Below are positions 11,167-29,801 of a DNA stretch of 37,920 nucleotides, piece after piece (within the stretch, counting starts at the first letter, position 1; every line of letters begins with the position of its first letter). The position numbers and the translations under genes are program-made. The stretch lies in the NCBI GenBank assembly GCA_033178465.1, contig GCA_033178465.1_4726.4. The stretch is one strand, 5' to 3'. The notes beneath the pieces are model-generated. The model ran no database searches, had not been told where the DNA came from, and was given only the letters and a program-made list of their open reading frames with translations. The DNA is from a phage.

Positions 11167-11200
11167 CTCCTTCCCTAGCCGTCAAGGCCGGGGAAGGAGG
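11167..11200. terminator. Conserved GGAGG-rich hairpin at convergent junction
   Basis: Stem CCTCCTTCCC / GGGAAGGAGG (10 bp), loop TAGCCGTCAAGGCC; between stop 11147 (plus) and stop 11216 (minus). Confidence 0.45.
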
Positions 11201-11215
11201 ATTATAGTTTATTTA

Positions 11216-11711: not shown

Positions 11712-12074
11712 TTAAAGCGCTCTGAAGAGTTCTGTAGCGTTCTCGTCACGTAGACAGGCTTCGTTCAACAATTCAGCTAACAGCTTCGACCGAACTTCAA
11801 CAAATGTCCTGAGGCGATGCTCCCATTCTAAACGGATGGTGTAAGTATTATCCAGGTTTTTGTAATCAACGACAGATACCGAGCAGCGGGGTTCACGTTT
11901 GTTCACAGCACTCCAAACATCACGGATAACCGTCACGCCTTTCTTGGTGCATGTAAACGTTAAAATACAGCGGTTATTCGCAGCTTCTTCACGGACATGA
12001 CTAAATTCACTTCGTAACGATGAGACTTTGATCAGTCGGTCAATAGCTAACGATAAACCGATACGTTGTTGCAT
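11712..12074 (-). CDS. Hypothetical small protein (120 aa)
   Basis: ATG 12074 with AGAGGGGA 6 nt upstream; start lies 1 nt from the upstream stop. Confidence 0.55.
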   Translation of the reverse strand: MQQRIGLSLAIDRLIKVSSLRSEFSHVREEAANNRCILTFTCTKKGVTVIRDVWSAVNKREPRCSVSVVDYKNLDNTYTIRLEWEHRLRTFVEVRSKLLAELLNEACLRDENATELFRAL

Positions 12075-12075
12075 A

Positions 12076-12504
12076 TCAAATCCCCTCTTTCAGAATCTCA
12101 TCGAGGCTATTAGCAACCGCATCTAACTTCGTGCTGATTACTTTTGGTGTCAATCCGTATATTTTCCAAACTATCTGCGGTTGACGTATTCCATTTGTCT
12201 GACAATACATCTCGATCGACAACACCATATCGTCGGTGAACGTCGTGCTTTCGCAACAACGAAGATAGGCAGCCTCGAGCAACGTCTTTCCTAACGTGGT
12301 ACACACAAAAGTCAATCGAACGCAACGCATAGACAACGTGTTCGCATTCATTGATGCTGAGATCGGCTGAATGTGTTCACTCAGTTTTTCGTCTTCACGT
12401 AAAAGTGATAGGGTGCGATGTAAGCTGGTATGCTGAGCAACCAGCGAATGATAAAGACCAACGCGCGCTGCAGTTGCTGCTGATTCGGGCCATTTAATTT
12501 TCAT
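12076..12504 (-). CDS. Hypothetical small protein (142 aa)
   Basis: ATG 12504 with GAGGAA 6 nt upstream. Confidence 0.55.
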   Translation of the reverse strand: MKIKWPESAATAARVGLYHSLVAQHTSLHRTLSLLREDEKLSEHIQPISASMNANTLSMRCVRLTFVCTTLGKTLLEAAYLRCCESTTFTDDMVLSIEMYCQTNGIRQPQIVWKIYGLTPKVISTKLDAVANSLDEILKEGI

Positions 12505-12519
12505 GTTCGATTCCTCGTA

Positions 12520-12963
12520 TTAACACTGTGTTCCATTCGATAAGCGGGTGGTATCAAAACGATCCAGTTGGTGTACAATGCTATTAGCAACACGATGCAA
12601 ATAGTGTATTTTGTCCATTCGTGAAATCGCAGAAATCGTCCAGCAAGCCTCTGACGTCCAATAGGTGCCGTCTTCACTAAGGCTAACGTTATAAACTAAT
12701 TTCGTCATCACATTTCTCGCCTTATGCTCAGCAGACCAGAATATGTTTTCTAACACATCCTTCCCCGTTTGTGAAAACACGAACCCAAGCTTCACGTCGA
12801 AGTCGGATGCTTCAAGATTAACGAAGTGAAGATGATTCTCCAAAGGCGCAAAAGAGGCTAAACGTTCCAGCGCGTTTTGCAGCGTGGGATGATCGAGCTT
12901 TTCGAGATCATCTACAGGTTGTTCAGGTACAATCGCGATCGATTTACAGAATTTAATTTCCAT
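12520..12963 (-). CDS. Hypothetical small protein (147 aa)
   Basis: ATG 12963 with AAGAGGAA upstream. Confidence 0.55.
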   Translation of the reverse strand: MEIKFCKSIAIVPEQPVDDLEKLDHPTLQNALERLASFAPLENHLHFVNLEASDFDVKLGFVFSQTGKDVLENIFWSAEHKARNVMTKLVYNVSLSEDGTYWTSEACWTISAISRMDKIHYLHRVANSIVHQLDRFDTTRLSNGTQC

Positions 12964-12993
12964 GGTAGGTTCCTCTTGATAGATGGTAGTAAC

Positions 12994-13013
12994 GGGGATA
13001 CCGCGGTATCCCC
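12994..13013. promoter_or_regulatory. Perfect 20-bp palindrome GGGGATACCGCGGTATCCCC
   Basis: Exact palindrome about 30 nt upstream of the RBS of gene 12520-12963; a related palindrome occurs at 27492-27509. Confidence 0.35.
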
Positions 13014-13071
13014 TAAGTCTTTATAACACACCCCAAGCCATATTGGGTACAGGCTCGTTACGTTCGATGAA

Positions 13072-13473
13072 TCACATCAGTTGTTCTTTAAGTTGGGTTA
13101 ACTTATTTGCAACGATGTTCTCAACGTCGATCATCTTGTTCATGTTGTCGAGGGTATCCTGCCAGATGAAAATATCCACGGAACCGGTTCCGGCTAACGC
13201 GTTCTCAGGACGATGGTCGCGGGTCACGTAGCGTGGTCTCTGCGGGCAGGTTTGTAACTCGATCCAAAGCGCATCTAACGGACCGTGGTCCGTGACACCT
13301 AAGGCGAAGAATTCACCTCGTACGACCAGAACATCATCAGCCGTCCTGACACGGGTTGATCCTTCGTACACCAATTCCATCTTTGCTCGGCAGGACGGGT
13401 TCCCGTTCCACGCCTGGACGGCATCGGCAAGGGCTATTGACGTTGCGGTGGTGTTCGTTTGATCATGTTGCAT
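13072..13473 (-). CDS. Hypothetical small protein (133 aa)
   Basis: ATG 13473 with AGGAG 7 nt upstream. Confidence 0.55.
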   Translation of the reverse strand: MQHDQTNTTATSIALADAVQAWNGNPSCRAKMELVYEGSTRVRTADDVLVVRGEFFALGVTDHGPLDALWIELQTCPQRPRYVTRDHRPENALAGTGSVDIFIWQDTLDNMNKMIDVENIVANKLTQLKEQLM

Positions 13474-13866: not shown

Positions 13867-14166
13867 TTAAGGTTTAGGTTCCGTTTTGTGTTGTGCGAGT
13901 AGTGTGTTGATCTGCTCCCGTTGTTCTTTTAAGCATGCGGGAAGCTGGTCTTCCCGCACCGTTCCGATTTCCAACGTGATGTACCAACGTTGTTCGGAAG
14001 CCTGCCATTGAAAACTGCTCTGTAAACGTAGGATGTTAGGATCGTGTACCTTGCTTGCGCTGTAGCGGTTGAACCAATCCAGGTAAGCTGCTTTCCCCTC
14101 CTCATCGGCAACGTAACGCTGCACGCTGTTCTTCCCTTTGTTTTCGTATCCCGTTGCACGTATCAT
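13867..14166 (-). CDS. Hypothetical small protein (99 aa from ATG 14166)
   Basis: Track ORF 13867-14223 overlaps the upstream gene; the only in-frame ATG (14166) has AAGGAG upstream and removes the overlap. Confidence 0.5.
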   Translation of the reverse strand: MIRATGYENKGKNSVQRYVADEEGKAAYLDWFNRYSASKVHDPNILRLQSSFQWQASEQRWYITLEIGTVREDQLPACLKEQREQINTLLAQHKTEPKP

Positions 14167-14189
14167 GCGAATGTTTCTCCTTGGTTGTA

Positions 14190-14939
14190 TTAGGGATGGC
14201 GCAACATAGTCACATCCCAGCATACCAGCTTGCTTTTCTCAAGCATCTTCTGCGCGATATCGACGCTAACTCTAGGATGCATGACAGGTAGCCAACGTTC
14301 GTTAAGTACCTTCGCTTCCAGGCGTTGCTTGCGCTTATTGTAACGTACCTCGCTAACCCATGCGTAACCAAAAGGATGGATAACCCGTGGGTAGTAACGT
14401 TTAAGCATCATCAGTCTTTGCTGATAAAGTTTATCGGAACCCTCGCTAACGAATAAGGCAACCCGTTCCAACCGCTTGGTGTAATACGTTCCGGTGGTAT
14501 GATTGATCCAACCAGGAAGTGCGCGTACGTCATTTTCGAGTGTTCCTGATACGTTGTGCACTTCACCGCTATACACCGTCCCAACAACCTGATTCGCTGC
14601 GCCCACCATCGACCGTGGCAAAGCATCCGCGGTAGGATACAACCATGCGTCCCCAAGCTGCTCTCCCGACGCAAGTACGCGTAGTCCGCTTGCGCTCATC
14701 CGTTGCGGATGCTGGCTCTTATGCGCACGCAACTGCACCACAGATAAGTCCGCTGGATAGGCGACGCAACAACCTCGCTGACGGAACAGTCCAACCTCAC
14801 CATCCATCCCTTCGATCATGCTTCCTTCCGAACCGTTCCACCAACGCTTAACCTTCACGCATTCCGCTTGCACAGCCTCAGGCAACGTTAGATAATCGTG
14901 CTCGATAAACACCACATCAAAAATTAATTCATTGTTCAT
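14190..14939 (-). CDS. Hypothetical protein (249 aa), first gene of the small-gene cassette
   Basis: ATG 14939 with AGAGGA upstream; immediately downstream of the AT-rich regulatory region. Confidence 0.55.
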   Translation of the reverse strand: MNNELIFDVVFIEHDYLTLPEAVQAECVKVKRWWNGSEGSMIEGMDGEVGLFRQRGCCVAYPADLSVVQLRAHKSQHPQRMSASGLRVLASGEQLGDAWLYPTADALPRSMVGAANQVVGTVYSGEVHNVSGTLENDVRALPGWINHTTGTYYTKRLERVALFVSEGSDKLYQQRLMMLKRYYPRVIHPFGYAWVSEVRYNKRKQRLEAKVLNERWLPVMHPRVSVDIAQKMLEKSKLVCWDVTMLRHP

Positions 14940-15190
14940 TTAAAAAGATCCTCTGTTTCACGTTAATTAAACAACGTATTGATTTCTATTCGACAACAAT
15001 ACGAACATTGTCCGTATGCATCATAGAGGTAATATAGCCGTGAAAGGATTTGTGTTACAGAAAGGGTTTTGTTGTGTTTTAAGAAGGGATGGATTTAGAA
15101 GAGGTGTTTCAAGGAAGGTAAACGAGGATGGTTATTTTAATTTAAGTAAGTAAGATGTTATCTGTATTTGTTAAAAGTGTATTGTCCATG

Positions 15191-15254
15191 TTATCTTGTT
15201 TATCTTAGGTTTAATCGTTTTATCTTTGTATGTTTAAGTTGTTTTATTTATCTT
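15191..15254. repeat. Iteron-like TTATCTT heptamer repeats (4 copies)
   Basis: TTATCTT at 15191, 15200, 15220 and 15248. Confidence 0.4.
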
Positions 15255-15738
15255 GTTTGTATATTTAAATTAAATCAATAAGCGTATCTTCAAAACAATG
15301 GATAACATGTGTTTACTACCTTAATGGTAACACATGTCATCTGTGCATTACACTCCGTTATCACTTCGTTACATGCTTATATGTTGGATAACTCAAAAAA
15401 CCATTTGTGATACTCTTCTTCACGTTGTTCATCAGAGTATCTCGTCTATACTCATTGCATTCGTATACGACATAACCGTTATACGCTAACGCTACGCTTA
15501 TAGCTTGATAACTCTAAGGATAAAAACATAAACTCGCTTCGCTCGTTTAGTTTTTCTTTTTCTTAGAGTTATCCTGTTGCTCGTCTCTAAAGGACTTCGC
15601 TCCTCCCCCGTCCCCCGAAGGGGCCGAGGTCGTGGAAATTTTACTTTCCAAATACATTTACAACATCTGTAAACTTTTACTCCAGGTACTTAATCTTATC
15701 ATTAGAAATTATAAAGAGAAGAATAAACACAAACATAA

Positions 15739-15763
15739 ACCTTCCCCCGACCCAACAGGGAAG
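15739..15763 (-). terminator. Intrinsic terminator candidate after gene 15783-16676
   Basis: Stem CCTTCCC / GGGAAGG with 11-nt loop; on the minus strand it is followed by a T-rich tract (complement of 15721-15738). Confidence 0.45.
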
Positions 15764-15782
15764 GAGGAAGGGAGAGATTAAA

Positions 15783-18291: not shown

Positions 18292-18302
18292 AGGAACCTC
18301 TA

Positions 18303-19412
18303 ATGGAGTTACGTGTTTGTAAATGTTGCGGAGTGGAGAAATCTATTATTGAGTTCAAACCTACCACATCCGGGTATTACACAAGAACGTGTAAAAAGTG
18401 TTTGGTGGCATACAAGAAACAATGGAGGAAACTCAACCCAGATAAAGAACGTGCACAAATCAAACGTTATATGGAGAAATGTAAAAACAGAACAGGAGAT
18501 GTTAAGCTGGCTTACATCAGATCGTTGCAACCGGCGCTGCGTGTTAAGGCAAAAATAGACTACCCTGAAAATATTCTTCTCTTACATTGCTTTAAATGCG
18601 ATGGAGTTAAGCCGGTGGATAGTTTTGCTTTGGCTGCTGCTAGACCAACCGGTAGGTCGAATATTTGTCGAGCATGTTTGCAACAACACACCCACAACAG
18701 GAAATATCTCCCTACGGAACAGTTTTATCGGTGCCAACGTTGTGGTAAAACGAAACCAGCCGATCAATTTAGAGATCGATCCTCTGTGATTCGTGGAAAA
18801 CATTCTTACTGTTTAGATTGTGAAAAAGACGTTAAAGAAGAATTGTTGCGACGCAGAACTCCTGAATATCAGATTGAGAAACTAAAAGAGAAAAGTGTAT
18901 TGCTTGCGTGTAAACATGGACTGGATCCGGATAAGCTCTGGAAGAAATGCTCGAGTTGCGGCGAGATAAAACGACCATCCGATTTTTCTCGCAATTGCCG
19001 TGCAATAGATGGATACCAGTCTATTTGTAAACACTGTCGCTCGGCCAGTAGCGAAACATTCGCTGGATTCAGGAGACGTATCCATGCCGCCGTCGGTCAT
19101 GCGACGACCGTTGGTAAACTAACACGTCCTGATACATGCGAAGAGTGTGGCTGTAACGCATACACTGAGGCACACCATGACAACTATCTTAAACCTTTCG
19201 ATGTTCGCTGGTTATGCCGTAGCTGCCATCGTAAAGTCCATTTGAATTACGTATTTGTTGAAATACGTTATTTCAAGGAAAAAGGTTTAACGGTTGAAGA
19301 AGTTGTGCGTCGAGCTTACCCTGACGCTTTTGATTGGGTGGTGGTTAACCCGGAAGATAAGAATGCGCTAGTTATCGTCCGAGTACCACCACAGTTACGA
19401 GAGTTAGATTAA
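18303..19412 (+). CDS. HNH endonuclease with four N-terminal zinc-ribbon-like repeats (homing-endonuclease-like)
   Basis: C-terminal CEECG...HHDNY...WLCRSCHRKVH HNH motif; four repeats of C-x2-C-G-x2-K-x4-F...C-x2-C; visibly AT-richer than neighbours; opposite orientation to both flanking genes; start only 11 bp from the endolysin start. Confidence 0.7.
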   Translation: MELRVCKCCGVEKSIIEFKPTTSGYYTRTCKKCLVAYKKQWRKLNPDKERAQIKRYMEKCKNRTGDVKLAYIRSLQPALRVKAKIDYPENILLLHCFKCDGVKPVDSFALAAARPTGRSNICRACLQQHTHNRKYLPTEQFYRCQRCGKTKPADQFRDRSSVIRGKHSYCLDCEKDVKEELLRRRTPEYQIEKLKEKSVLLACKHGLDPDKLWKKCSSCGEIKRPSDFSRNCRAIDGYQSICKHCRSASSETFAGFRRRIHAAVGHATTVGKLTRPDTCEECGCNAYTEAHHDNYLKPFDVRWLCRSCHRKVHLNYVFVEIRYFKEKGLTVEEVVRRAYPDAFDWVVVNPEDKNALVIVRVPPQLRELD

Positions 19413-19420
19413 TGTCGAAT

Positions 19421-19444
19421 AAGAGGGAGTGGCAGCTCCCTCTT
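19421..19444 (+). terminator. Terminator candidate after the HNH gene
   Basis: Stem AAGAGGGAG / CTCCCTCTT (9 bp) with 6-nt loop, followed by a partly T-rich run. Confidence 0.4.
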
Positions 19445-19488
19445 TATGCCGTGTTGTTAAATACTGGATTTAGAGGAACAGGAAGGGT

Positions 19489-19570: not shown

Positions 19571-21619
19571 TCAAATACCTTTGGTTCCCTTCACGTGATG
19601 TGCGATTTCTTCAACCATTGCACGCAGGGCACGAAGCTGTTGGTCGTGTTCGTACCAACCGCCTAACAGAACCCCGCTATACACCATGGTGTCAAGACTT
19701 AACAGTCCTTTATCTGATACGTTGATCATTTCAGGGAACTGTTCTTGAACACGCTGTGCGATAACACCGATCTTCTCGACATCAGGATCGTAGTTGTGAC
19801 GGAAACGGGCAAGCCCGCTGCGCGCCATTTCGCGTAAACGTTCACTGAGAGATTCCGGATGATCTTTCAGATAACGAATGTCGTGTTTACTACGCTCATC
19901 TGAACGGATGTAAGCGTTAGGAACATCGATGTTGCTGTTGAAGTACAGCGCACTACCACCGCCTGCAGAGTTCCCCCAATAGAAGCGTGTGATCTCACCG
20001 CCGCCATTTTCCGTGATGATAACATGTTTACCTAAACGCGTACCACCGTTACCATCAACGAAGACCAGTTTGTTTCCGCTGTAAGAACCCCAGAACAAGC
20101 GTGTATCGATGATGTGTGTTGCAGCGAGACGGGCGTTACGTGGTGTAGAATACACGGTGTTAACATCTTGCTGCGCATGTGCATCGGAAGCGATACCATA
20201 GTTCTGTACGTTACCCAATCCCACCTGCGCTTTTGTAACAGCATGCGGGTTATCCCGACGGTTAGCGTGAGCGTTAACCAGATCACCCGCTAATTTCTGA
20301 ATTGCCCAGTTGGTAGACTGTGGTGTCATGTAACGGTTCGTTGCAGAACCACCTTGCGCTTCAGCTTGGTTAGCGGTTGGGTAGTTCTCAACACTTCCTA
20401 ACCCTACTTGTGCCTTAGACACTTGGTGTGGGTTATTCTTATCGGCGATGTGTGCATTAAGCGGAACTAACGCAAAGGTCTCAATGGACGCTTTGGTTGT
20501 GTTCGGTGCCATTAATCGGTTAGCTGCAACACCAGCACGCGCTTCTTCTTCAGAAGCCATTGGGTAGTCTTGCACATTCCCTAACCCAACCTGTGCTTTG
20601 GTCACCCTGTGTGGGTTGTTGTAATCGGCTTTATGCGCATTAAGCGGAATCAGTGCGAACTGTTCAATCGCTGCAACAGTACGTAGCGGCGTCATGAAAC
20701 GGTTGTTCGCTGTACCCGCTTTTGCTTCAGAGTCCGACGCTGTCGGGAAGTTATCAACGTTCCCAAGGTTAACCTGTGCTTTGGTGACGCTATGCGGGTT
20801 ATCCCGGCGGTTAGCATGCGCGTCGACCAGATCGCCTGCCAGTTTAGCAATCGCCCAGCCAACCGTCTGTGCTGTCATGTAACGGTCAGGTGCAGTACCG
20901 GCTTCTGCCTCCGCCTTGTTTGCGGTAGGGTAGTTCTGTACGTTACCTAGTCCGACTTGGGCTTTTGTTACTTCGTGCGGGTTATCGGTACGGTTAGCAT
21001 GTGCGTAATGCAGATCGGTCAGATCTTTATCCGCCGCTTGCATGTCTTTGCGTAGCTGATCGATTGCCGCCCAGAGACGGTTATCGGACGCAGCATCACC
21101 GATAAGTATTGCAGCTTTTAACGAATAGATCGCTAAGCAAAGATGCTCGGTACCGTAGATGGCGCTAACGTGGTGGATGTGTGGTTCAGGCGGATAGAGT
21201 TCTGGTTTGTTCTTGATGTCGTCCCAGTTGATCGGACGATCGTCAAGTTTGAGTTCTTCGATAGCCTGATATAACGCGTCAATAAGACTTACGTAAACAC
21301 CACCGATGATACGATAGTCGTTAACTAACGTACCCTCGATATCATCGTTGATGATGGCGATGGCTGCACAGATTTCTTTACCAGCGTAAAGCGTAGCGTC
21401 CTGATACAAGAAGATGGGCTTATAATCCACGCCTCGTACCAGTGTCTTACCGGTAAGCTTTTCAGTGATGACCAGACTTTCGGTGAAGAACGGTCCGCCA
21501 TCAAGGGCGTAACATTTATTCTCGGTTCGTGGAACGGTATGCTCTTCACCAACGATGTGGTTGCTGGCGAGTGTACCGGTCCAGTCCTCGGGGTACTTCA
21601 GGGTAATTGGTGTCGACAT
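19571..21619 (-). CDS. Tail fibre protein with about five tandem 61-aa repeats and C-terminal intramolecular-chaperone (peptidase S74-like) domain
   Basis: Five repeats with core NPHxVTKAQVGLGNVxNY...YMTP; C-terminal SDERSKHDIRYLKD...GLLSLDTMVY matches the self-cleaving chaperone domain known from endosialidases and L-shaped tail fibres; N-terminus similar to gene 25306-27459. Confidence 0.8.
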   Translation of the reverse strand: MSTPITLKYPEDWTGTLASNHIVGEEHTVPRTENKCYALDGGPFFTESLVITEKLTGKTLVRGVDYKPIFLYQDATLYAGKEICAAIAIINDDIEGTLVNDYRIIGGVYVSLIDALYQAIEELKLDDRPINWDDIKNKPELYPPEPHIHHVSAIYGTEHLCLAIYSLKAAILIGDAASDNRLWAAIDQLRKDMQAADKDLTDLHYAHANRTDNPHEVTKAQVGLGNVQNYPTANKAEAEAGTAPDRYMTAQTVGWAIAKLAGDLVDAHANRRDNPHSVTKAQVNLGNVDNFPTASDSEAKAGTANNRFMTPLRTVAAIEQFALIPLNAHKADYNNPHRVTKAQVGLGNVQDYPMASEEEARAGVAANRLMAPNTTKASIETFALVPLNAHIADKNNPHQVSKAQVGLGSVENYPTANQAEAQGGSATNRYMTPQSTNWAIQKLAGDLVNAHANRRDNPHAVTKAQVGLGNVQNYGIASDAHAQQDVNTVYSTPRNARLAATHIIDTRLFWGSYSGNKLVFVDGNGGTRLGKHVIITENGGGEITRFYWGNSAGGGSALYFNSNIDVPNAYIRSDERSKHDIRYLKDHPESLSERLREMARSGLARFRHNYDPDVEKIGVIAQRVQEQFPEMINVSDKGLLSLDTMVYSGVLLGGWYEHDQQLRALRAMVEEIAHHVKGTKGI
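20190..21010 (-). repeat. Tandem in-frame repeats, about 183 bp period, 5 copies (tail-fibre repeat)
   Basis: Recurrent plus-strand block resembling GTTCTG-ACGTT-CC-A-CC-AC-TG-GCTTTGGT-AC at about 20198, 20383, 20567, 20750 and 20933. Confidence 0.75.
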
Positions 21620-25305: not shown

Positions 25306-27459
25306 TTATAACGTTTCGAAGTCGGTTGCTTTGATAACCGCGTTGAAGTTGGCAAGGAATTCCTTAAGCAGTGCTTGGAAGACATCACGAAACGCCGTGT
25401 TCGTCTGCAAGCTGGTTAAATAATCGTTCTTAAGGTAATCACTCAGCTTACCGATCTTCTGCATCTTCTCGCCGTCTTGGTTCTCTCCAGGTTCTTGGCT
25501 GTTGATGTTAACCCATTTGATCCCTTCGAGATCGCCATCGGCAAGGAAGTTAGCGGGCGTCTCATCGTCGTTCAGGATTTTAATTGTGTCGCTGGATTCA
25601 ATGCCACCGTAAGCTTCCAGAAGCTGGTTGACTGTTAGCGTGTTGGTGTTGATTGAACCATTGACACCATCAATACCGATGCCTGCACCTGTGATGGATG
25701 TCGCCGAAAGATCGATCGGTCCGGTTAACTTACCACCGTTGATCGGTAACGCACCAACTTGCTCAGCGGTGTGGGTGTGGTTGGCTAACGCCGCAAATGC
25801 CACAATTGACTTGTAAGTCGAGTACGGTGTCATGTACGTCGTTTGGTTAGTCTTGTCGGCAGCTTGCGTGTCGGTGGCGACAGTAAAGTCCTGCACGTTC
25901 CCCAGACCAACTTGAGCCTTGGTTACACCATGGGGGTTGCTCTTATCGACAACGTGTGCTGCAAAACCATCACCTGCTAAAGCGATGATTGCCGCTTTTG
26001 TCGCAGCCGGTGTCATATAGCGGTTGGTTGCTTCACCCGTTTGCGCCTCTTCGTCGGAAGCAACAGGATAGTTCTCAACGCTCCCCAAACCGACCTGAGA
26101 TTTTGTTACTTGGTGTGGGTTTTCGGTATTCGCGATATGACTACTGAACCCTTGACCAGCCAGTTGCTCGATTGCGTAACGAACAAGTATTGGCGTCATG
26201 TACTTGTTGTTAACCTGACCATCGATAGCTTCTTGGGTGGTGGCAACCCCGAAGTTTTGCACGCTCCCCAACCCAACTTGAGCTTTCGTAACAGCGTGGG
26301 GGTTATTGGTGTTACCGATGTGATCGGTAACCGTTGGGGTGATTAATCCTGCGATAGCGGCTGCCGTGGTCGCAGGGGTCATGTATTTATCGTTAGCAAC
26401 ACCCGCAGCAGCTTCTACGTTAGATGCTACACCGTAGTTCAATACATTTCCTAACCCAACTTGAGCTTTGGTTACCCCGTGGGGGTTGTTCTTGTCTCCG
26501 GTATGGGTTGTCAACGTAGCGTTAACGTTATCGATACGCGTGCTTAAGCCATCGGTGATTGCTTTGATTGCGGCTCGTACACCCGCTGGTGTCGTGTACA
26601 GATTGGTGGCCGTACCGGTAATGGTTGCATTACTATCGGCTGTACCGTAGTTCTCAACGTTTCCGAGTCCCACCTGGGCTTTAGTTACCTTGTGTGGGTT
26701 GTTGTAGTTGCTGATGTGCGCAGCAGCACTATCACCACTCAGGTTAGCGATCATCTTACGCGTCATCGCCAACGTCATGTACAGATTTTCACCGATGGTT
26801 TCCAGATCGCTCTCGGTCGCCGTTGTGAAGTTCTGAACATTCCCCAATCCAACTTGAGCCTTGGTTACACCATGGGGGTTATCGCGACGATTCTCGTGTT
26901 GTAGCAATGCGGTCATTGCTTTATTGAACCCTTCTTCAAGCGGTTCTTTCAATGATTCGATTGCCGCCACCACATCGTCCCACGTCATTGTGTCGGTTTC
27001 GACATTATGTTGGTGGTTGATTGGCGGGAATACGGAAGGAACGTCAGCAACCTTTTCCCAGAACGTAACGCGGGGATCGTAAAGGTTGTTGGCTAAAACG
27101 TTAAGAATTTGTTGTTGATCAAGTGTAAACTCACCCCCCAGTGAATAGTAGTTCAGTTGCAACTGTCCACTGAATGCGGTGTCCAACAGCATGATGGAAC
27201 CGTATAATTCCAGGCCGGTCAGCGCAGCCATGGCACGGAAGGGGTGAGTGCATAAAAAGTCAACGCCTTCTTCCAGATACGCGTTTGTTTCAGGGTTGTA
27301 GATCTTTAACCCATTACGAAAATATGGCGCGTATTTAGGAACGAGAAAGTTAAATCCGGTCCCCGTGGAAGGACGGACAGTGACGAGTTCTTCTGGAACC
27401 CATGCGCCATCCAAATTCCCCTGCGGGTTATACGGAAGGCGTTTAATTTCATCTGTCAT
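25306..27459 (-). CDS. Tail fibre protein with about six tandem 61-aa repeats (717 aa)
   Basis: Six repeats with core NPHxVTKAQVGLGNVxN...YMTP; N-terminal domain similar to gene 19571-21619; no S74 domain at the C-terminus. Confidence 0.75.
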   Translation of the reverse strand: MTDEIKRLPYNPQGNLDGAWVPEELVTVRPSTGTGFNFLVPKYAPYFRNGLKIYNPETNAYLEEGVDFLCTHPFRAMAALTGLELYGSIMLLDTAFSGQLQLNYYSLGGEFTLDQQQILNVLANNLYDPRVTFWEKVADVPSVFPPINHQHNVETDTMTWDDVVAAIESLKEPLEEGFNKAMTALLQHENRRDNPHGVTKAQVGLGNVQNFTTATESDLETIGENLYMTLAMTRKMIANLSGDSAAAHISNYNNPHKVTKAQVGLGNVENYGTADSNATITGTATNLYTTPAGVRAAIKAITDGLSTRIDNVNATLTTHTGDKNNPHGVTKAQVGLGNVLNYGVASNVEAAAGVANDKYMTPATTAAAIAGLITPTVTDHIGNTNNPHAVTKAQVGLGSVQNFGVATTQEAIDGQVNNKYMTPILVRYAIEQLAGQGFSSHIANTENPHQVTKSQVGLGSVENYPVASDEEAQTGEATNRYMTPAATKAAIIALAGDGFAAHVVDKSNPHGVTKAQVGLGNVQDFTVATDTQAADKTNQTTYMTPYSTYKSIVAFAALANHTHTAEQVGALPINGGKLTGPIDLSATSITGAGIGIDGVNGSINTNTLTVNQLLEAYGGIESSDTIKILNDDETPANFLADGDLEGIKWVNINSQEPGENQDGEKMQKIGKLSDYLKNDYLTSLQTNTAFRDVFQALLKEFLANFNAVIKATDFETL
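25880..26930 (-). repeat. Tandem in-frame repeats, about 180-190 bp period, 6 copies (tail-fibre repeat)
   Basis: Recurrent plus-strand block at about 25888, 26075, 26253, 26438, 26650 and 26830; source of the repeated antisense pseudo-ORFs in the track. Confidence 0.75.
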
Positions 27460-27491
27460 GATGCGCCCTTTACAAGTTGTTAGTAAGTATG

Positions 27492-27509
27492 GGATACCCT
27501 GGGGTATCC
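27492..27509. promoter_or_regulatory. Near-perfect palindrome GGATACCC-TG-GGGTATCC in divergent intergenic region
   Basis: 8-bp arms; related to the perfect palindrome at 12994-13013; lies between the divergent starts at 27459 and 27564. Confidence 0.35.
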
Positions 27510-27563
27510 TGTGTTAACAGCGGTAAAATATTACTGTAACTATAAAATAAGGGGGCCTCTCCC

Positions 27564-28844
27564 ATGTATACATTGGTAAAAACTTACGGATTACCCGTAG
27601 GTTCTGGCACGGCCTGGACAGCGCTTGAGGCGGGTGAAAGTGTCCTGAGTACGTTGTTCTCAACGTATCAAAAACTCAAGATCCAGGTCCATGAAAGTTA
27701 TGCTGATCAGCAACAAGTTATTGATCTGTACGCGTTCCAATCCGAGCTTCAAAACAGTAGCGATACGCTTAATGCGTGGCTGAAGGCGAAATCGGATGCG
27801 CACACCAACCTTCGAGGACAGCCTGGTGAACTGTCGATTAAAACCCACAAGCTTTATTGCCATGACGTTGTTACTGTAGGCTTTCTCCCTAAAGTCGGTA
27901 ATAGCGGTTATCATCCGAGCAACGCGATCCCTGAGTCGGAACGCACCGATATCCTGTTGACGAAAGCGAATACGAATTACGAAAATATCGGCAAACACTG
28001 CTTGTTCACCGTAGGCGGTTATGTTCATCCTCACGTCTACGGTAAAGACGTTGGTGTCTATATCCAAGGTGGGTTCAAGACGGCACAGCGTAGCCAAGAA
28101 AACGATATCGGCATGATTGATTTTAGCCGTATCGGGAGTTTGGAAATCCATGCTATCACAGAAGAGATGATTGCTGATTCCACGAAGCTCTTGCCGTATA
28201 AGGACGAGATGTACTTGCGGTTACCGCGAAAGGTCGCCGAAGATGAAACCGTCGCGCTGGTGTTCGGGGGATATTTACATCTTCTTGACGATTGTTACAC
28301 GATCGTTAGTGACACGACAGCGAAAATAAACTGCATTAACATGTTTCTTTATGAAAGATACTTCCGTTCCCGCAAATACCTTGATCTAACATCTCTTGGT
28401 ATTCTGTTGACTGAGGAAGACCCACAGTCCGACATTGTTGCCAATCGTTTATTGTCCGATAAAGCATTAAAAGCGTGGGTGACGCATCCTTGCAGTTTCT
28501 GGGTGTATATCAAAGCAACATCAATTCAGGTTACACAAGAACCTTTGCCACGAAGTGGTGTACCAGGACAATATTTCTTAGGTAAGAAACCGGAAGGATT
28601 GATTCGAGCTGATCTCGGCGAGTTACCGGCTTACGTGCAGACCTATGAAAAACCGTTATGGGTACTTCACTCGCGCTGGGGACTTCGTAAAAACATGCTG
28701 TTTGAAAACACATTGTACAAACATACCCGCGTTAAGCGGCTTAACGATACGCCTTATCTTCACCAGGTCTGGTTGGAAACGCATGCAACGTTGCAGACAG
28801 TACACAAGCTTGAATTGATCGATTCCAGTCAGAAAAACAAATAA
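27564..28844 (+). CDS. Hypothetical protein (426 aa), lone plus-strand gene inside the structural block
   Basis: ATG 27564 with AGGGGG about 9 nt upstream; no motif recognised. Confidence 0.6.
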   Translation: MYTLVKTYGLPVGSGTAWTALEAGESVLSTLFSTYQKLKIQVHESYADQQQVIDLYAFQSELQNSSDTLNAWLKAKSDAHTNLRGQPGELSIKTHKLYCHDVVTVGFLPKVGNSGYHPSNAIPESERTDILLTKANTNYENIGKHCLFTVGGYVHPHVYGKDVGVYIQGGFKTAQRSQENDIGMIDFSRIGSLEIHAITEEMIADSTKLLPYKDEMYLRLPRKVAEDETVALVFGGYLHLLDDCYTIVSDTTAKINCINMFLYERYFRSRKYLDLTSLGILLTEEDPQSDIVANRLLSDKALKAWVTHPCSFWVYIKATSIQVTQEPLPRSGVPGQYFLGKKPEGLIRADLGELPAYVQTYEKPLWVLHSRWGLRKNMLFENTLYKHTRVKRLNDTPYLHQVWLETHATLQTVHKLELIDSSQKNK

Positions 28845-28854
28845 CCAAACATAA

Positions 28855-28886
28855 CCCTCCTCCAACCCGTAAGGGAAGGAGGAGGG
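28855..28886. terminator. Conserved hairpin at convergent gene junction (loop AACCCGTAAGGGAA)
   Basis: Stem CCCTCCTCC / GGAGGAGGG (9 bp); 14-nt loop identical to the one at 4094-4107. Confidence 0.45.
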
Positions 28887-28895
28887 AATATGCTG

Positions 28896-29801
28896 TTATG
28901 CTACATATAACGTTAGATAACCATCGATGAGCGTATTCATCACACTGAGTTGGAGTACGACAGCTTTACTAACATCCGTACGTACACCGAACGGTAGTGT
29001 TTTGAATTGCTCTGGATCGGCTATTACTTGCGCATTCTGCAAGTTGAGCGGTCCAGGCACTGCTGACAGTACCCAGCGATCGTTGACCATAAGGCCGTCG
29101 ATCTCTTCAGAGAGACCCAATTGCAGTGTGTTCATTTCTGCGATTAGTGCCTCCGATTGCGTATCGCCCGAGGTTAACGTATATCCATCGGTAAGTGATG
29201 CCAGAACACCAGCAGATACGAACCAGTTGTACGAAACAATAGCGCCTGGGAGTTTACTGCTATCTCGATCGATGATATAATTCAACCCAGCCAACATATT
29301 GTTGCGAACGAGGTTGTTGAGGTCGTTATGTCCTGAGGTTAACTCAACAAGTAACTGACCAACCCATACTTGGTTACCGGGTTTAGGTGTTATCACAACC
29401 TGTATCGGTGACTTGGACTTATCCAGATCCGCGTCGACAATCTCGGTTTTGTTGAGAAGGATACCGTACGTCGATGCTAAGACAGGTAATATCTCAGAGA
29501 CCTTGGTTAATGCATCTAAGGTTTCGATCTCGATGGGCCAGTGGTGCTGTCCGCCAGACCAAGTACCCAGTTTACCAAGATCGATGCGGTTATAATAGAT
29601 GTCGACAGAGTTCACCAGCCCTGAACCCGGTTGGGGATGCACGGTTAACTTGCTGTTACGCTTGTACCCTGTGCTTTCAGAAGCTTCACCGATAACCAGT
29701 TTATCCAGCGTTACGCCTCGAGCATCGAAATCGCTATGCTTTCGAATCAGCCGAAAGAGGATTTCTTTCGATTCTAACCCCAGGATTTCACTGTACTCCA
29801 T
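28896..29801 (-). CDS. Paralog-family protein (301 aa), probable structural
   Basis: ATG 29801 with AAGGGG upstream; family motifs YYNRIDLG, LASTYGILL and VWVGQLLV. Confidence 0.65.
   Translation of the reverse strand: MEYSEILGLESKEILFRLIRKHSDFDARGVTLDKLVIGEASESTGYKRNSKLTVHPQPGSGLVNSVDIYYNRIDLGKLGTWSGGQHHWPIEIETLDALTKVSEILPVLASTYGILLNKTEIVDADLDKSKSPIQVVITPKPGNQVWVGQLLVELTSGHNDLNNLVRNNMLAGLNYIIDRDSSKLPGAIVSYNWFVSAGVLASLTDGYTLTSGDTQSEALIAEMNTLQLGLSEEIDGLMVNDRWVLSAVPGPLNLQNAQVIADPEQFKTLPFGVRTDVSKAVVLQLSVMNTLIDGYLTLYVA

Follow-up and report, generated by a model that had tools for sequence, protein, structure and literature searches.

Two GGATACC palindromes of a Goslar-like jumbo phage are probably independent intergenic RNA stem-loops and not a shared regulatory site

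The two GGATACC palindromes in the window (the whole stretch of 37,920 nucleotides of phage DNA that was analyzed) are probably two independent intergenic RNA stem-loops with a role in transcript stability or punctuation, and the likeness of their arms is probably coincidental. The hairpins exist, their pairing has been kept through the turnover of their sequences, and a regulon is absent. That the acting molecule would be RNA and not DNA, that the plus strand would be the one used at the second locus, and that the role would be one of stability or punctuation are the interpretive parts of this reading. The main outcome is the removal of a false lead, as there is no GGATACC regulon, and each palindrome is a commonplace example of a type of element that is already known. 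What emerges is a Goslar-like picture of transcript punctuation, in which hairpins at cistron boundaries are conserved in structure and variable in sequence. Of what remains, the part of most interest is the structured, tightly conserved leader that precedes the virion gene at 27564–28844.

The window and its relationship to phage Goslar

The window is a contig of a phage that is ~90–97% identical to Escherichia phage vB_EcoM_Goslar, a 237-kb nucleus-forming jumbo phage. It is colinear with Goslar positions 65–36811, in blocks of 93–97% identity, apart from one 1.17-kb insertion, and the whole Goslar genome with its annotation was used as the reference for genome-wide tests. Goslar gene 36 appeared to be missing at the right end of the window; this was an artifact, as the ORFs run off the end there.

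The insertion (18298–19466), which is not in Goslar, separates the homologues of Goslar genes 24 and 25. A plus-strand ORF of 369 aa within it (18303–19412) encodes a zinc-finger-like Stc1 domain (Pfam PF12898, E = 1.3e-7) and is possibly a mobile gene. A long minus-strand gene (19571–21619), for whose Goslar homologue a Peptidase_S74 domain is annotated, contains diverged internal repeats at 20190–21016 that match shifted positions in the homologous gene of Goslar with 67–79% identity. Three sharp mosaic patches (12061–12480, 12961–13127, and 14148–14946) had 40–75% identity to Goslar against a background of 95–100%, and these patches indicate module exchange within the early small-gene cassette. 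Proteins near-identical to those of the window carry Salmonella enterica and Shigella flexneri labels in NCBI (contigs of 83–236 kb), showing that Goslar-like phages are present in several enterobacterial isolate assemblies.

The two palindromes and the likelihood of their resemblance

Palindrome 1 (locus 1) is a perfect 20-bp palindrome at 12994–13013, GGGGATACCG/CGGTATCCCC (GGGGATACCGCGGTATCCCC). Palindrome 2 (locus 2), at 27492–27509, has 8-bp arms and a 2-nt spacer, GGATACCC-TG-GGGTATCC. They begin 31 and 33 nt upstream of minus-strand ORF starts at 12963 and 27459, respectively. The sequence and the ORF starts agree with the first-pass annotation, which had reported both palindromes at these coordinates near minus-strand ATGs. 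Its description of the setting as upstream of minus-strand genes was right as to the distances and incomplete for locus 2. There the intergenic region is divergent, separating a minus-strand gene (25306–27459) from a plus-strand gene (27564–28844), and palindrome 2 is equally upstream of the latter, at 55 nt.

The window contained two sequences of the form GGATACC-N0-6-GGTATCC, whereas 100 dinucleotide-preserving shuffles yielded none, from which we concluded that the individual dyads are not due to chance. The resemblance between the two palindromes is only weak evidence, much weaker than that for the dyads themselves. Monte Carlo estimates of the probability that some pair of hairpins has a 7-mer arm in common were p = 0.015–0.03 for the window's 8 intergenic perfect hairpins and p = 0.17–0.20 for all 32 perfect hairpins of the window. 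At the scale of the genome, with the 37 intergenic hairpins of Goslar, one such 7-mer coincidence would be expected, by extrapolation rather than computation.

Search for a GGATACC regulon

A shared operator had been proposed for the two sites, in which a dimeric phage regulator binds GGATACC-n-GGTATCC at both and co-regulates the two minus-strand genes. The attraction of this proposal is that two perfect dyads with the same 7–8-nt half-site are located 31 and 33 nt from a minus-strand ATG, with TTACTA after each, and that the coincidence has p = 0.015–0.03 when the window's intergenic hairpins alone are the reference set. However, the 237 kb of the Goslar genome contain exactly one GGATACC dyad, which is intergenic and is the locus 2 homologue. 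When up to two mismatches and spacers of 0–14 nt were allowed, Goslar had 22 matches, and the 21 others were all in coding sequence. The contexts also differ, since locus 1 is in a putative early small-gene operon and locus 2 is among virion structural genes. We consider the proposal very improbable, and the comparisons of relatives at each locus, described below, weigh further against it.

The TTACTA on the minus strand after both palindromes is unlinked to hairpins elsewhere. It was considered as a promoter element and judged coincidental, with 86 copies in Goslar, 12 of them intergenic, none of the others adjoining a hairpin. The 8 neighboring small proteins had no match to a DNA-binding domain or to any Pfam family, although novel folds may be present among them. 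The exact locus-1 palindrome was absent from 2.9 million IMG/VR contigs, and the exact locus-2 palindrome was identified in that database once each in three Goslar-like contigs.

Locus 1: a hairpin retained through replacement of its sequence

The features of locus 1 and of the gene run that contains it are as follows.

15027–15042, minus strand: early-promoter-like motif CACGGCTATATTACCT (phiKZ-type TATATTAC) that heads the locus-1 gene run
13072–13473, minus strand: upstream gene, Goslar gp18 homologue, 133 aa, no Pfam domain
13032–13047, minus strand: weaker terminator-like hairpin, CCCAA-tatggc-TTGGG, then GUGUGUUAUA
12994–13013, minus strand: palindrome 1, as RNA an 8-bp stem GGGGAUAC/GUAUCCCC with loop CGCG, about −14.7 kcal/mol
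12970–12977, minus strand: Shine-Dalgarno sequence AAGAGGAA of the downstream gene (ATG at 12963), conserved in all relatives
12520–12963, minus strand: downstream gene, Goslar gp17 homologue, 147 aa, no Pfam domain

Palindrome 1 is located between two co-directional minus-strand genes, within a run of small minus-strand genes that extends from 14939 down to 11216. The motif CACGGCTATATTACCT has 12 intergenic copies in Goslar, all of them on the minus strand. The window has a long conserved motif, (A/T-rich)TTTCACGnCTAyATTACyTnnGTGA, at 2494–2509 and 15027–15042, in both cases on the minus strand. Early and middle promoter motifs have been described for phiKZ, whose well-conserved extended early-promoter element is similar to the Goslar-like minus-strand motif (PMC4666361). 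The motif probably marks early (virion RNA polymerase) promoters of Goslar-like phages, and we infer that the small-gene run holding locus 1 is an early operon. The ~840-nt intergenic region at 14940–15782 (854 nt in Goslar) has no long ORF and holds the early-promoter-like motif together with a hairpin and TATG module.

We compared locus 1 in 11 sequences (the window and the loci of 10 relatives), which represent two haplotypes, and additionally in a more distant relative, L028. The stem GGGGATAC-CGCG-GTATCCCC was present in the window, L011, and L019, and L012 differed from it by a G-to-T change in the loop only. The stem in the other seven of the 11 sequences (Goslar and six others) was GGGGAC-ATCGCC-GTCCCC. 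What the two haplotypes share is limited to the stem base GGGGA/TCCCC and, downstream, GTTACTA...AAGAGGAA. L028, whose gp18 is 58% identical, has a third, unrelated stem, GGGAGGG-TAA-CCCTCCC, which is 8 nt past the stop codon in an intergenic region of 46 nt. Folding energies for all versions of the stem were between −12 and −15.6 kcal/mol (z-scores between −2.7 and −3.6).

The identity profile of the window against Goslar showed that 12961–13127 is ~30% divergent in a background that is ~98% identical. As this divergent patch still has a hairpin, the hairpin survived the replacement of the whole locus-1 intergenic region. Based on these comparisons, what is conserved at the gp18/gp17 junction is a predicted stable stem-loop and not the GGATACC sequence. 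A shared operator fits poorly with this, as the locus-1 half-site has been swapped for unrelated stems in most relatives despite a flanking gene that is 97% identical.

The weaker hairpin at 13032–13047 follows closely on the stop codon of the upstream gene, and 18 nt separate it from palindrome 1. Among the relatives, one of its C-G pairs is a T-A pair in L011, a compensatory change, and L012 has a coding-strand U.G wobble. The Shine-Dalgarno sequence of the downstream gene is free of the palindrome 1 hairpin, that is, it is not sequestered. In L028 the stop codon and the hairpin are too close together to accommodate a promoter, from which we infer that the hairpin is part of a polycistronic RNA. 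Palindrome 1 would thus be an intercistronic hairpin in the polycistronic transcript of the early operon, between the gp18 and gp17 homologues.

Locus 2: a hairpin at the start of a conserved leader

The features of locus 2 are as follows.

25306–27459, minus strand: Goslar gp29 homologue, YomR-like
27492–27509, plus strand: palindrome 2, whose plus-strand RNA stem extends over 27488–27513, with 11 pairs including G.U
27505–27563, plus strand: conserved non-coding block, TATCCTGTGTTAA...GTAAnnnnTTAC...TAACTATAnAATAAGGGGG
27520–27537, plus strand: second small stem-loop, GCGGUAA-AAUA-UUACUGU, in the conserved block
27564–28844, plus strand: virion structural gene, Goslar gp30 homologue, PhiPA3 gp149 family

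In close relatives the locus-2 intergenic region was identical throughout and hence uninformative. The informative lineages were L014, L015, and L026, whose gp30 is 48–50% identical. In these three, the block from the right arm TATCC to the ATG was strikingly conserved, far better than the gp30 protein. This block of 59 nt begins within the right arm of palindrome 2 and ends at the start codon of the plus-strand gene. The left arm of palindrome 2 and the sequence toward the minus-strand gene were not conserved in the same lineages, and conservation in the leader of that gene was limited to its Shine-Dalgarno sequence.

Pairing at locus 2 was taken from the folds of individual sequences because the MAFFT alignment of the left arm was unreliable. 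The left arm and the top of the stem, though replaced, still pair, as ATGCGCC-ggacat-GGCGTAT in L014 and GGATAaGCC-ggacat-GGCgTATCC in L026; the hairpin of L015 is weak (−5.1 kcal/mol). Several A-to-G changes opposite T keep G.U pairing on the plus strand and give a C.A mismatch on the minus strand, and the plus strand folded better than the minus strand in five of five lineages. The second stem-loop (27520–27537) contains two G.U pairs and so would form on the plus strand only; 94% of its cells were paired, and one pair had changed on both sides. These observations on covariation come from few independent lineages, with three stem variants at locus 1 and four to five at locus 2.

The conserved block and the plus-strand-only pairing led us to assign palindrome 2 to the leader of gene 27564–28844 and not to the minus-strand gene. 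With moderate confidence, palindrome 2 is most likely the 5'-proximal stem-loop of this conserved leader. The block at 27505–27563 may be a promoter, a cis-regulatory leader, or both.

The locus-2 relatives are also relevant to the question of a shared operator. In the window 8 nt separate GGATA from TATCC; in L026 the gap is 14 nt, with extra bases that can pair with one another. Such a change in spacing is no obstacle to a hairpin, but a rigid dimeric DNA-binding protein would not accommodate it. The first-pass annotation had suggested a genome-wide motif search and a comparison with related phages as checks on a regulatory motif, and neither supports one. With a half-site that is not conserved in relatives, a single intergenic copy in Goslar, and variable spacing at locus 2, its dimeric-regulator site was set aside. 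This phage appears to have no GGATACC regulon, and the shared arm would be a coincidence of one sub-lineage. Its second suggestion, a conserved RNA processing hairpin, held in that pairing is kept at both loci; it did not hold as a single recurrent element, and a role in processing is conjectural. Classical RNase III sites have about two helical turns of double-stranded RNA, usually with an internal loop, for which 8–11 bp is too short. The palindrome stems are only 8–11 bp and do not have this feature of a T7-type RNase III site.

RNA or DNA as the acting molecule

The late-promoter motif of phiKZ is TATG, with its G as +1, and single substitutions in it strongly reduce late transcription (PMC4666361). 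On the plus strand, a TATG adjoins palindrome 2 both in the window and in Goslar, and a start at this site would put the palindrome 2 hairpin exactly at the 5' terminus. However, the motif is TGTG or GATG in relatives, and for this reason we regard a start there as a minor possibility only.

Perfect DNA palindromes could work equally well as DNA, for example in cruciform or hairpin structures associated with promoters of a phage RNA polymerase, or as hot spots of recombination at the limits of exchangeable modules. In addition to the TATG at palindrome 2, a TATGCYG motif closely accompanies other hairpins of Goslar, and palindrome 1 lies inside the small mosaic patch 12961–13127, whose boundaries are close to the hairpin. 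We think it improbable that the palindromes are DNA-level elements. Neither TATG nor the early motif adjoins locus 1, the TATG at palindrome 2 is changed in relatives, and the mosaic patch may reflect no more than relaxed constraint between genes. Moreover, pairing that is kept on one strand only, via G.U-type substitutions, points to RNA.

A more specific version of the RNA reading, which we put forward tentatively and hold to be doubtful, is that palindrome 2 is the first stem-loop of a ~75-nt leader RNA that acts as a cis-regulatory element or gives rise to a 5'UTR-derived small RNA. The proposed RNA would comprise the stem-loop at 27488–27513, the stem-loop at 27520–27537, and an A-rich single-stranded Shine-Dalgarno region. 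If this is correct, candidate roles include late translation control, mRNA export, or stability. A homologue of the sRNA upstream of phiKZ gp182 and 201phi2-1 gp277 was considered for the locus-2 leader and rejected, as the gp30 family differs (PhiPA3 gp149). The more distant chimalliviruses (pEa_SNUABM_54, Proteus phage 10, KpHz_2, FLC4-3B, Psa21, RAY, and one metagenomic relative of 27% identity) have kept the divergent gene arrangement without a common leader sequence or structure. Conservation of the locus-2 leader is confined to the Goslar-like clade.

Intergenic hairpins and the question of termination

GC-rich perfect hairpins were denser in intergenic than in coding sequence of Goslar, by 5.8-fold for stems of at least 6 bp and 16.6-fold for stems of at least 8 bp. 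There are 37 intergenic GC-rich hairpins with stems of at least 7 bp in Goslar, and a catalogue of its intergenic regions showed that most of those between co-directional genes carry a GC-rich hairpin. The dominant family has CCCTCC...GGAGGG arms and then, directly, (T)TATGC(C/T)G. Palindromes 1 and 2 are outside this family, having neither its arms nor a downstream TATGCYG.

Goslar has 27 intergenic copies of a C/T-rich hairpin family (CCCTCCTCCTTCCCT-loop-GGGTTGGAGGAGGG, with variants) that has (T)TATGC(C/T)G directly after the hairpin. The family was found in the window at 28848–28902, 11168–11215, and 15743–15762 (minus strand), and in Goslar at L001–L005. The TATG of this family resembles the phiKZ late-promoter start, and the annotated ATG of some genes is the ATG of the motif. 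This suggests that the hairpins with TATGC(C/T)G are compact terminator-promoter modules. The early-promoter-like motif and the combination of hairpin and TATGCYG recur through the genome.

With hairpins this frequent, and the likeness of the two palindromes compatible with chance, the palindromes might be functionless chance occurrences. We give this explanation little credence: hairpin potential is kept at both loci despite complete turnover of the stem sequence in diverged lineages, and the intergenic enrichment of GC-rich hairpins is strong.

Both palindromes are GC-rich stem-loops of −11 to −15 kcal/mol, and an Rfam search of the whole window gave no match at the gathering score. Their stability, the position of locus 1 downstream of a stop codon (in a run of co-directional genes), and the terminator annotation on many Goslar hairpins would be in keeping with canonical intrinsic (Rho-independent) terminators of the upstream transcription units. 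However, a U-tract is absent on both strands, the stems being followed by GUUACUA, CAUACUU, UAAGUCU, or UGUGUUAAC, and a terminator consensus scan flagged neither palindrome. At locus 2 the flanking genes diverge, and no annotated transcript should end there. Canonical terminators at these loci are therefore unlikely. Of 132 termination sites mapped in 201phi2-1, only 52 are predicted intrinsic terminators (PMC11512511). As most of these sites are without a predicted intrinsic terminator, structure-only signals are plausible in this phage family.

In our preferred reading, of two independent RNA stem-loops, the locus-2 stem-loop would be in the untranslated leader of the plus-strand virion structural gene, just as palindrome 1 would be between two cistrons. 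Both hairpins would be untranslated and would leave the ribosome-binding sites unoccluded. They could act as barriers that protect the adjacent mRNA from exonucleolytic or 5'-end-dependent decay, and/or as leaky stop or pause signals, lacking a U-tract, for the phage RNA polymerases. The outcome would be tuning of the relative expression of neighboring cistrons.

Comparison with known systems

The palindromes are like lambda/P22-type repressor operators in their perfect dyad symmetry and their proximity to start codons. They differ from such operators in having no genome recurrence, no half-site conservation, and no fixed spacing, and no cognate regulator was found among the neighboring small proteins. 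The PeSL cassettes of T4-type phages are modules of an early promoter and a stem-loop that mediate gene shuffling. The locus-1 stem-loop is similar to these in its position between small early genes and in the mosaic replacement patches; unlike PeSL cassettes, it has no adjoining early promoter motif, and there is no cassette sequence repeated between intergenic regions.

The palindromes belong with the terminator hairpins of chimalliviruses (phiKZ, 201phi2-1; PMC11512511) and the CCCTCC...GGAGGG modules of Goslar in the class of intergenic GC-rich stem-loops, although they are without the family arm, the T-run, and TATGCYG, and locus 2 is divergent. The locus-2 leader is like the 5'UTR-derived RNAs of phiKZ and 201phi2-1 (sRNA005 and sRNAgp182; PMC11512511) in being a conserved structured leader before a virion gene, with conservation beyond that of the protein. 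It differs in that gp30 is of the PhiPA3 gp149 family and not gp182/gp214, and in that the leader is known from its sequence alone. We consider it analogous to the sRNA upstream of phiKZ gp182 and unrelated to it in sequence.

Stem-loops that stabilize mRNA include the 5' hairpin of E. coli ompA and the intercistronic hairpins of the malEFG and puf operons. The present setting is unlike theirs, as it is a nucleus-forming phage with its own RNA polymerases, in which the hairpins are seen in the genome sequence only. Like the ompA, malEFG, and puf hairpins, however, the two palindromes form short, stable, GC-rich stem-loops at untranslated cistron boundaries, leave the Shine-Dalgarno sequence free, and are conserved in structure and not in sequence.
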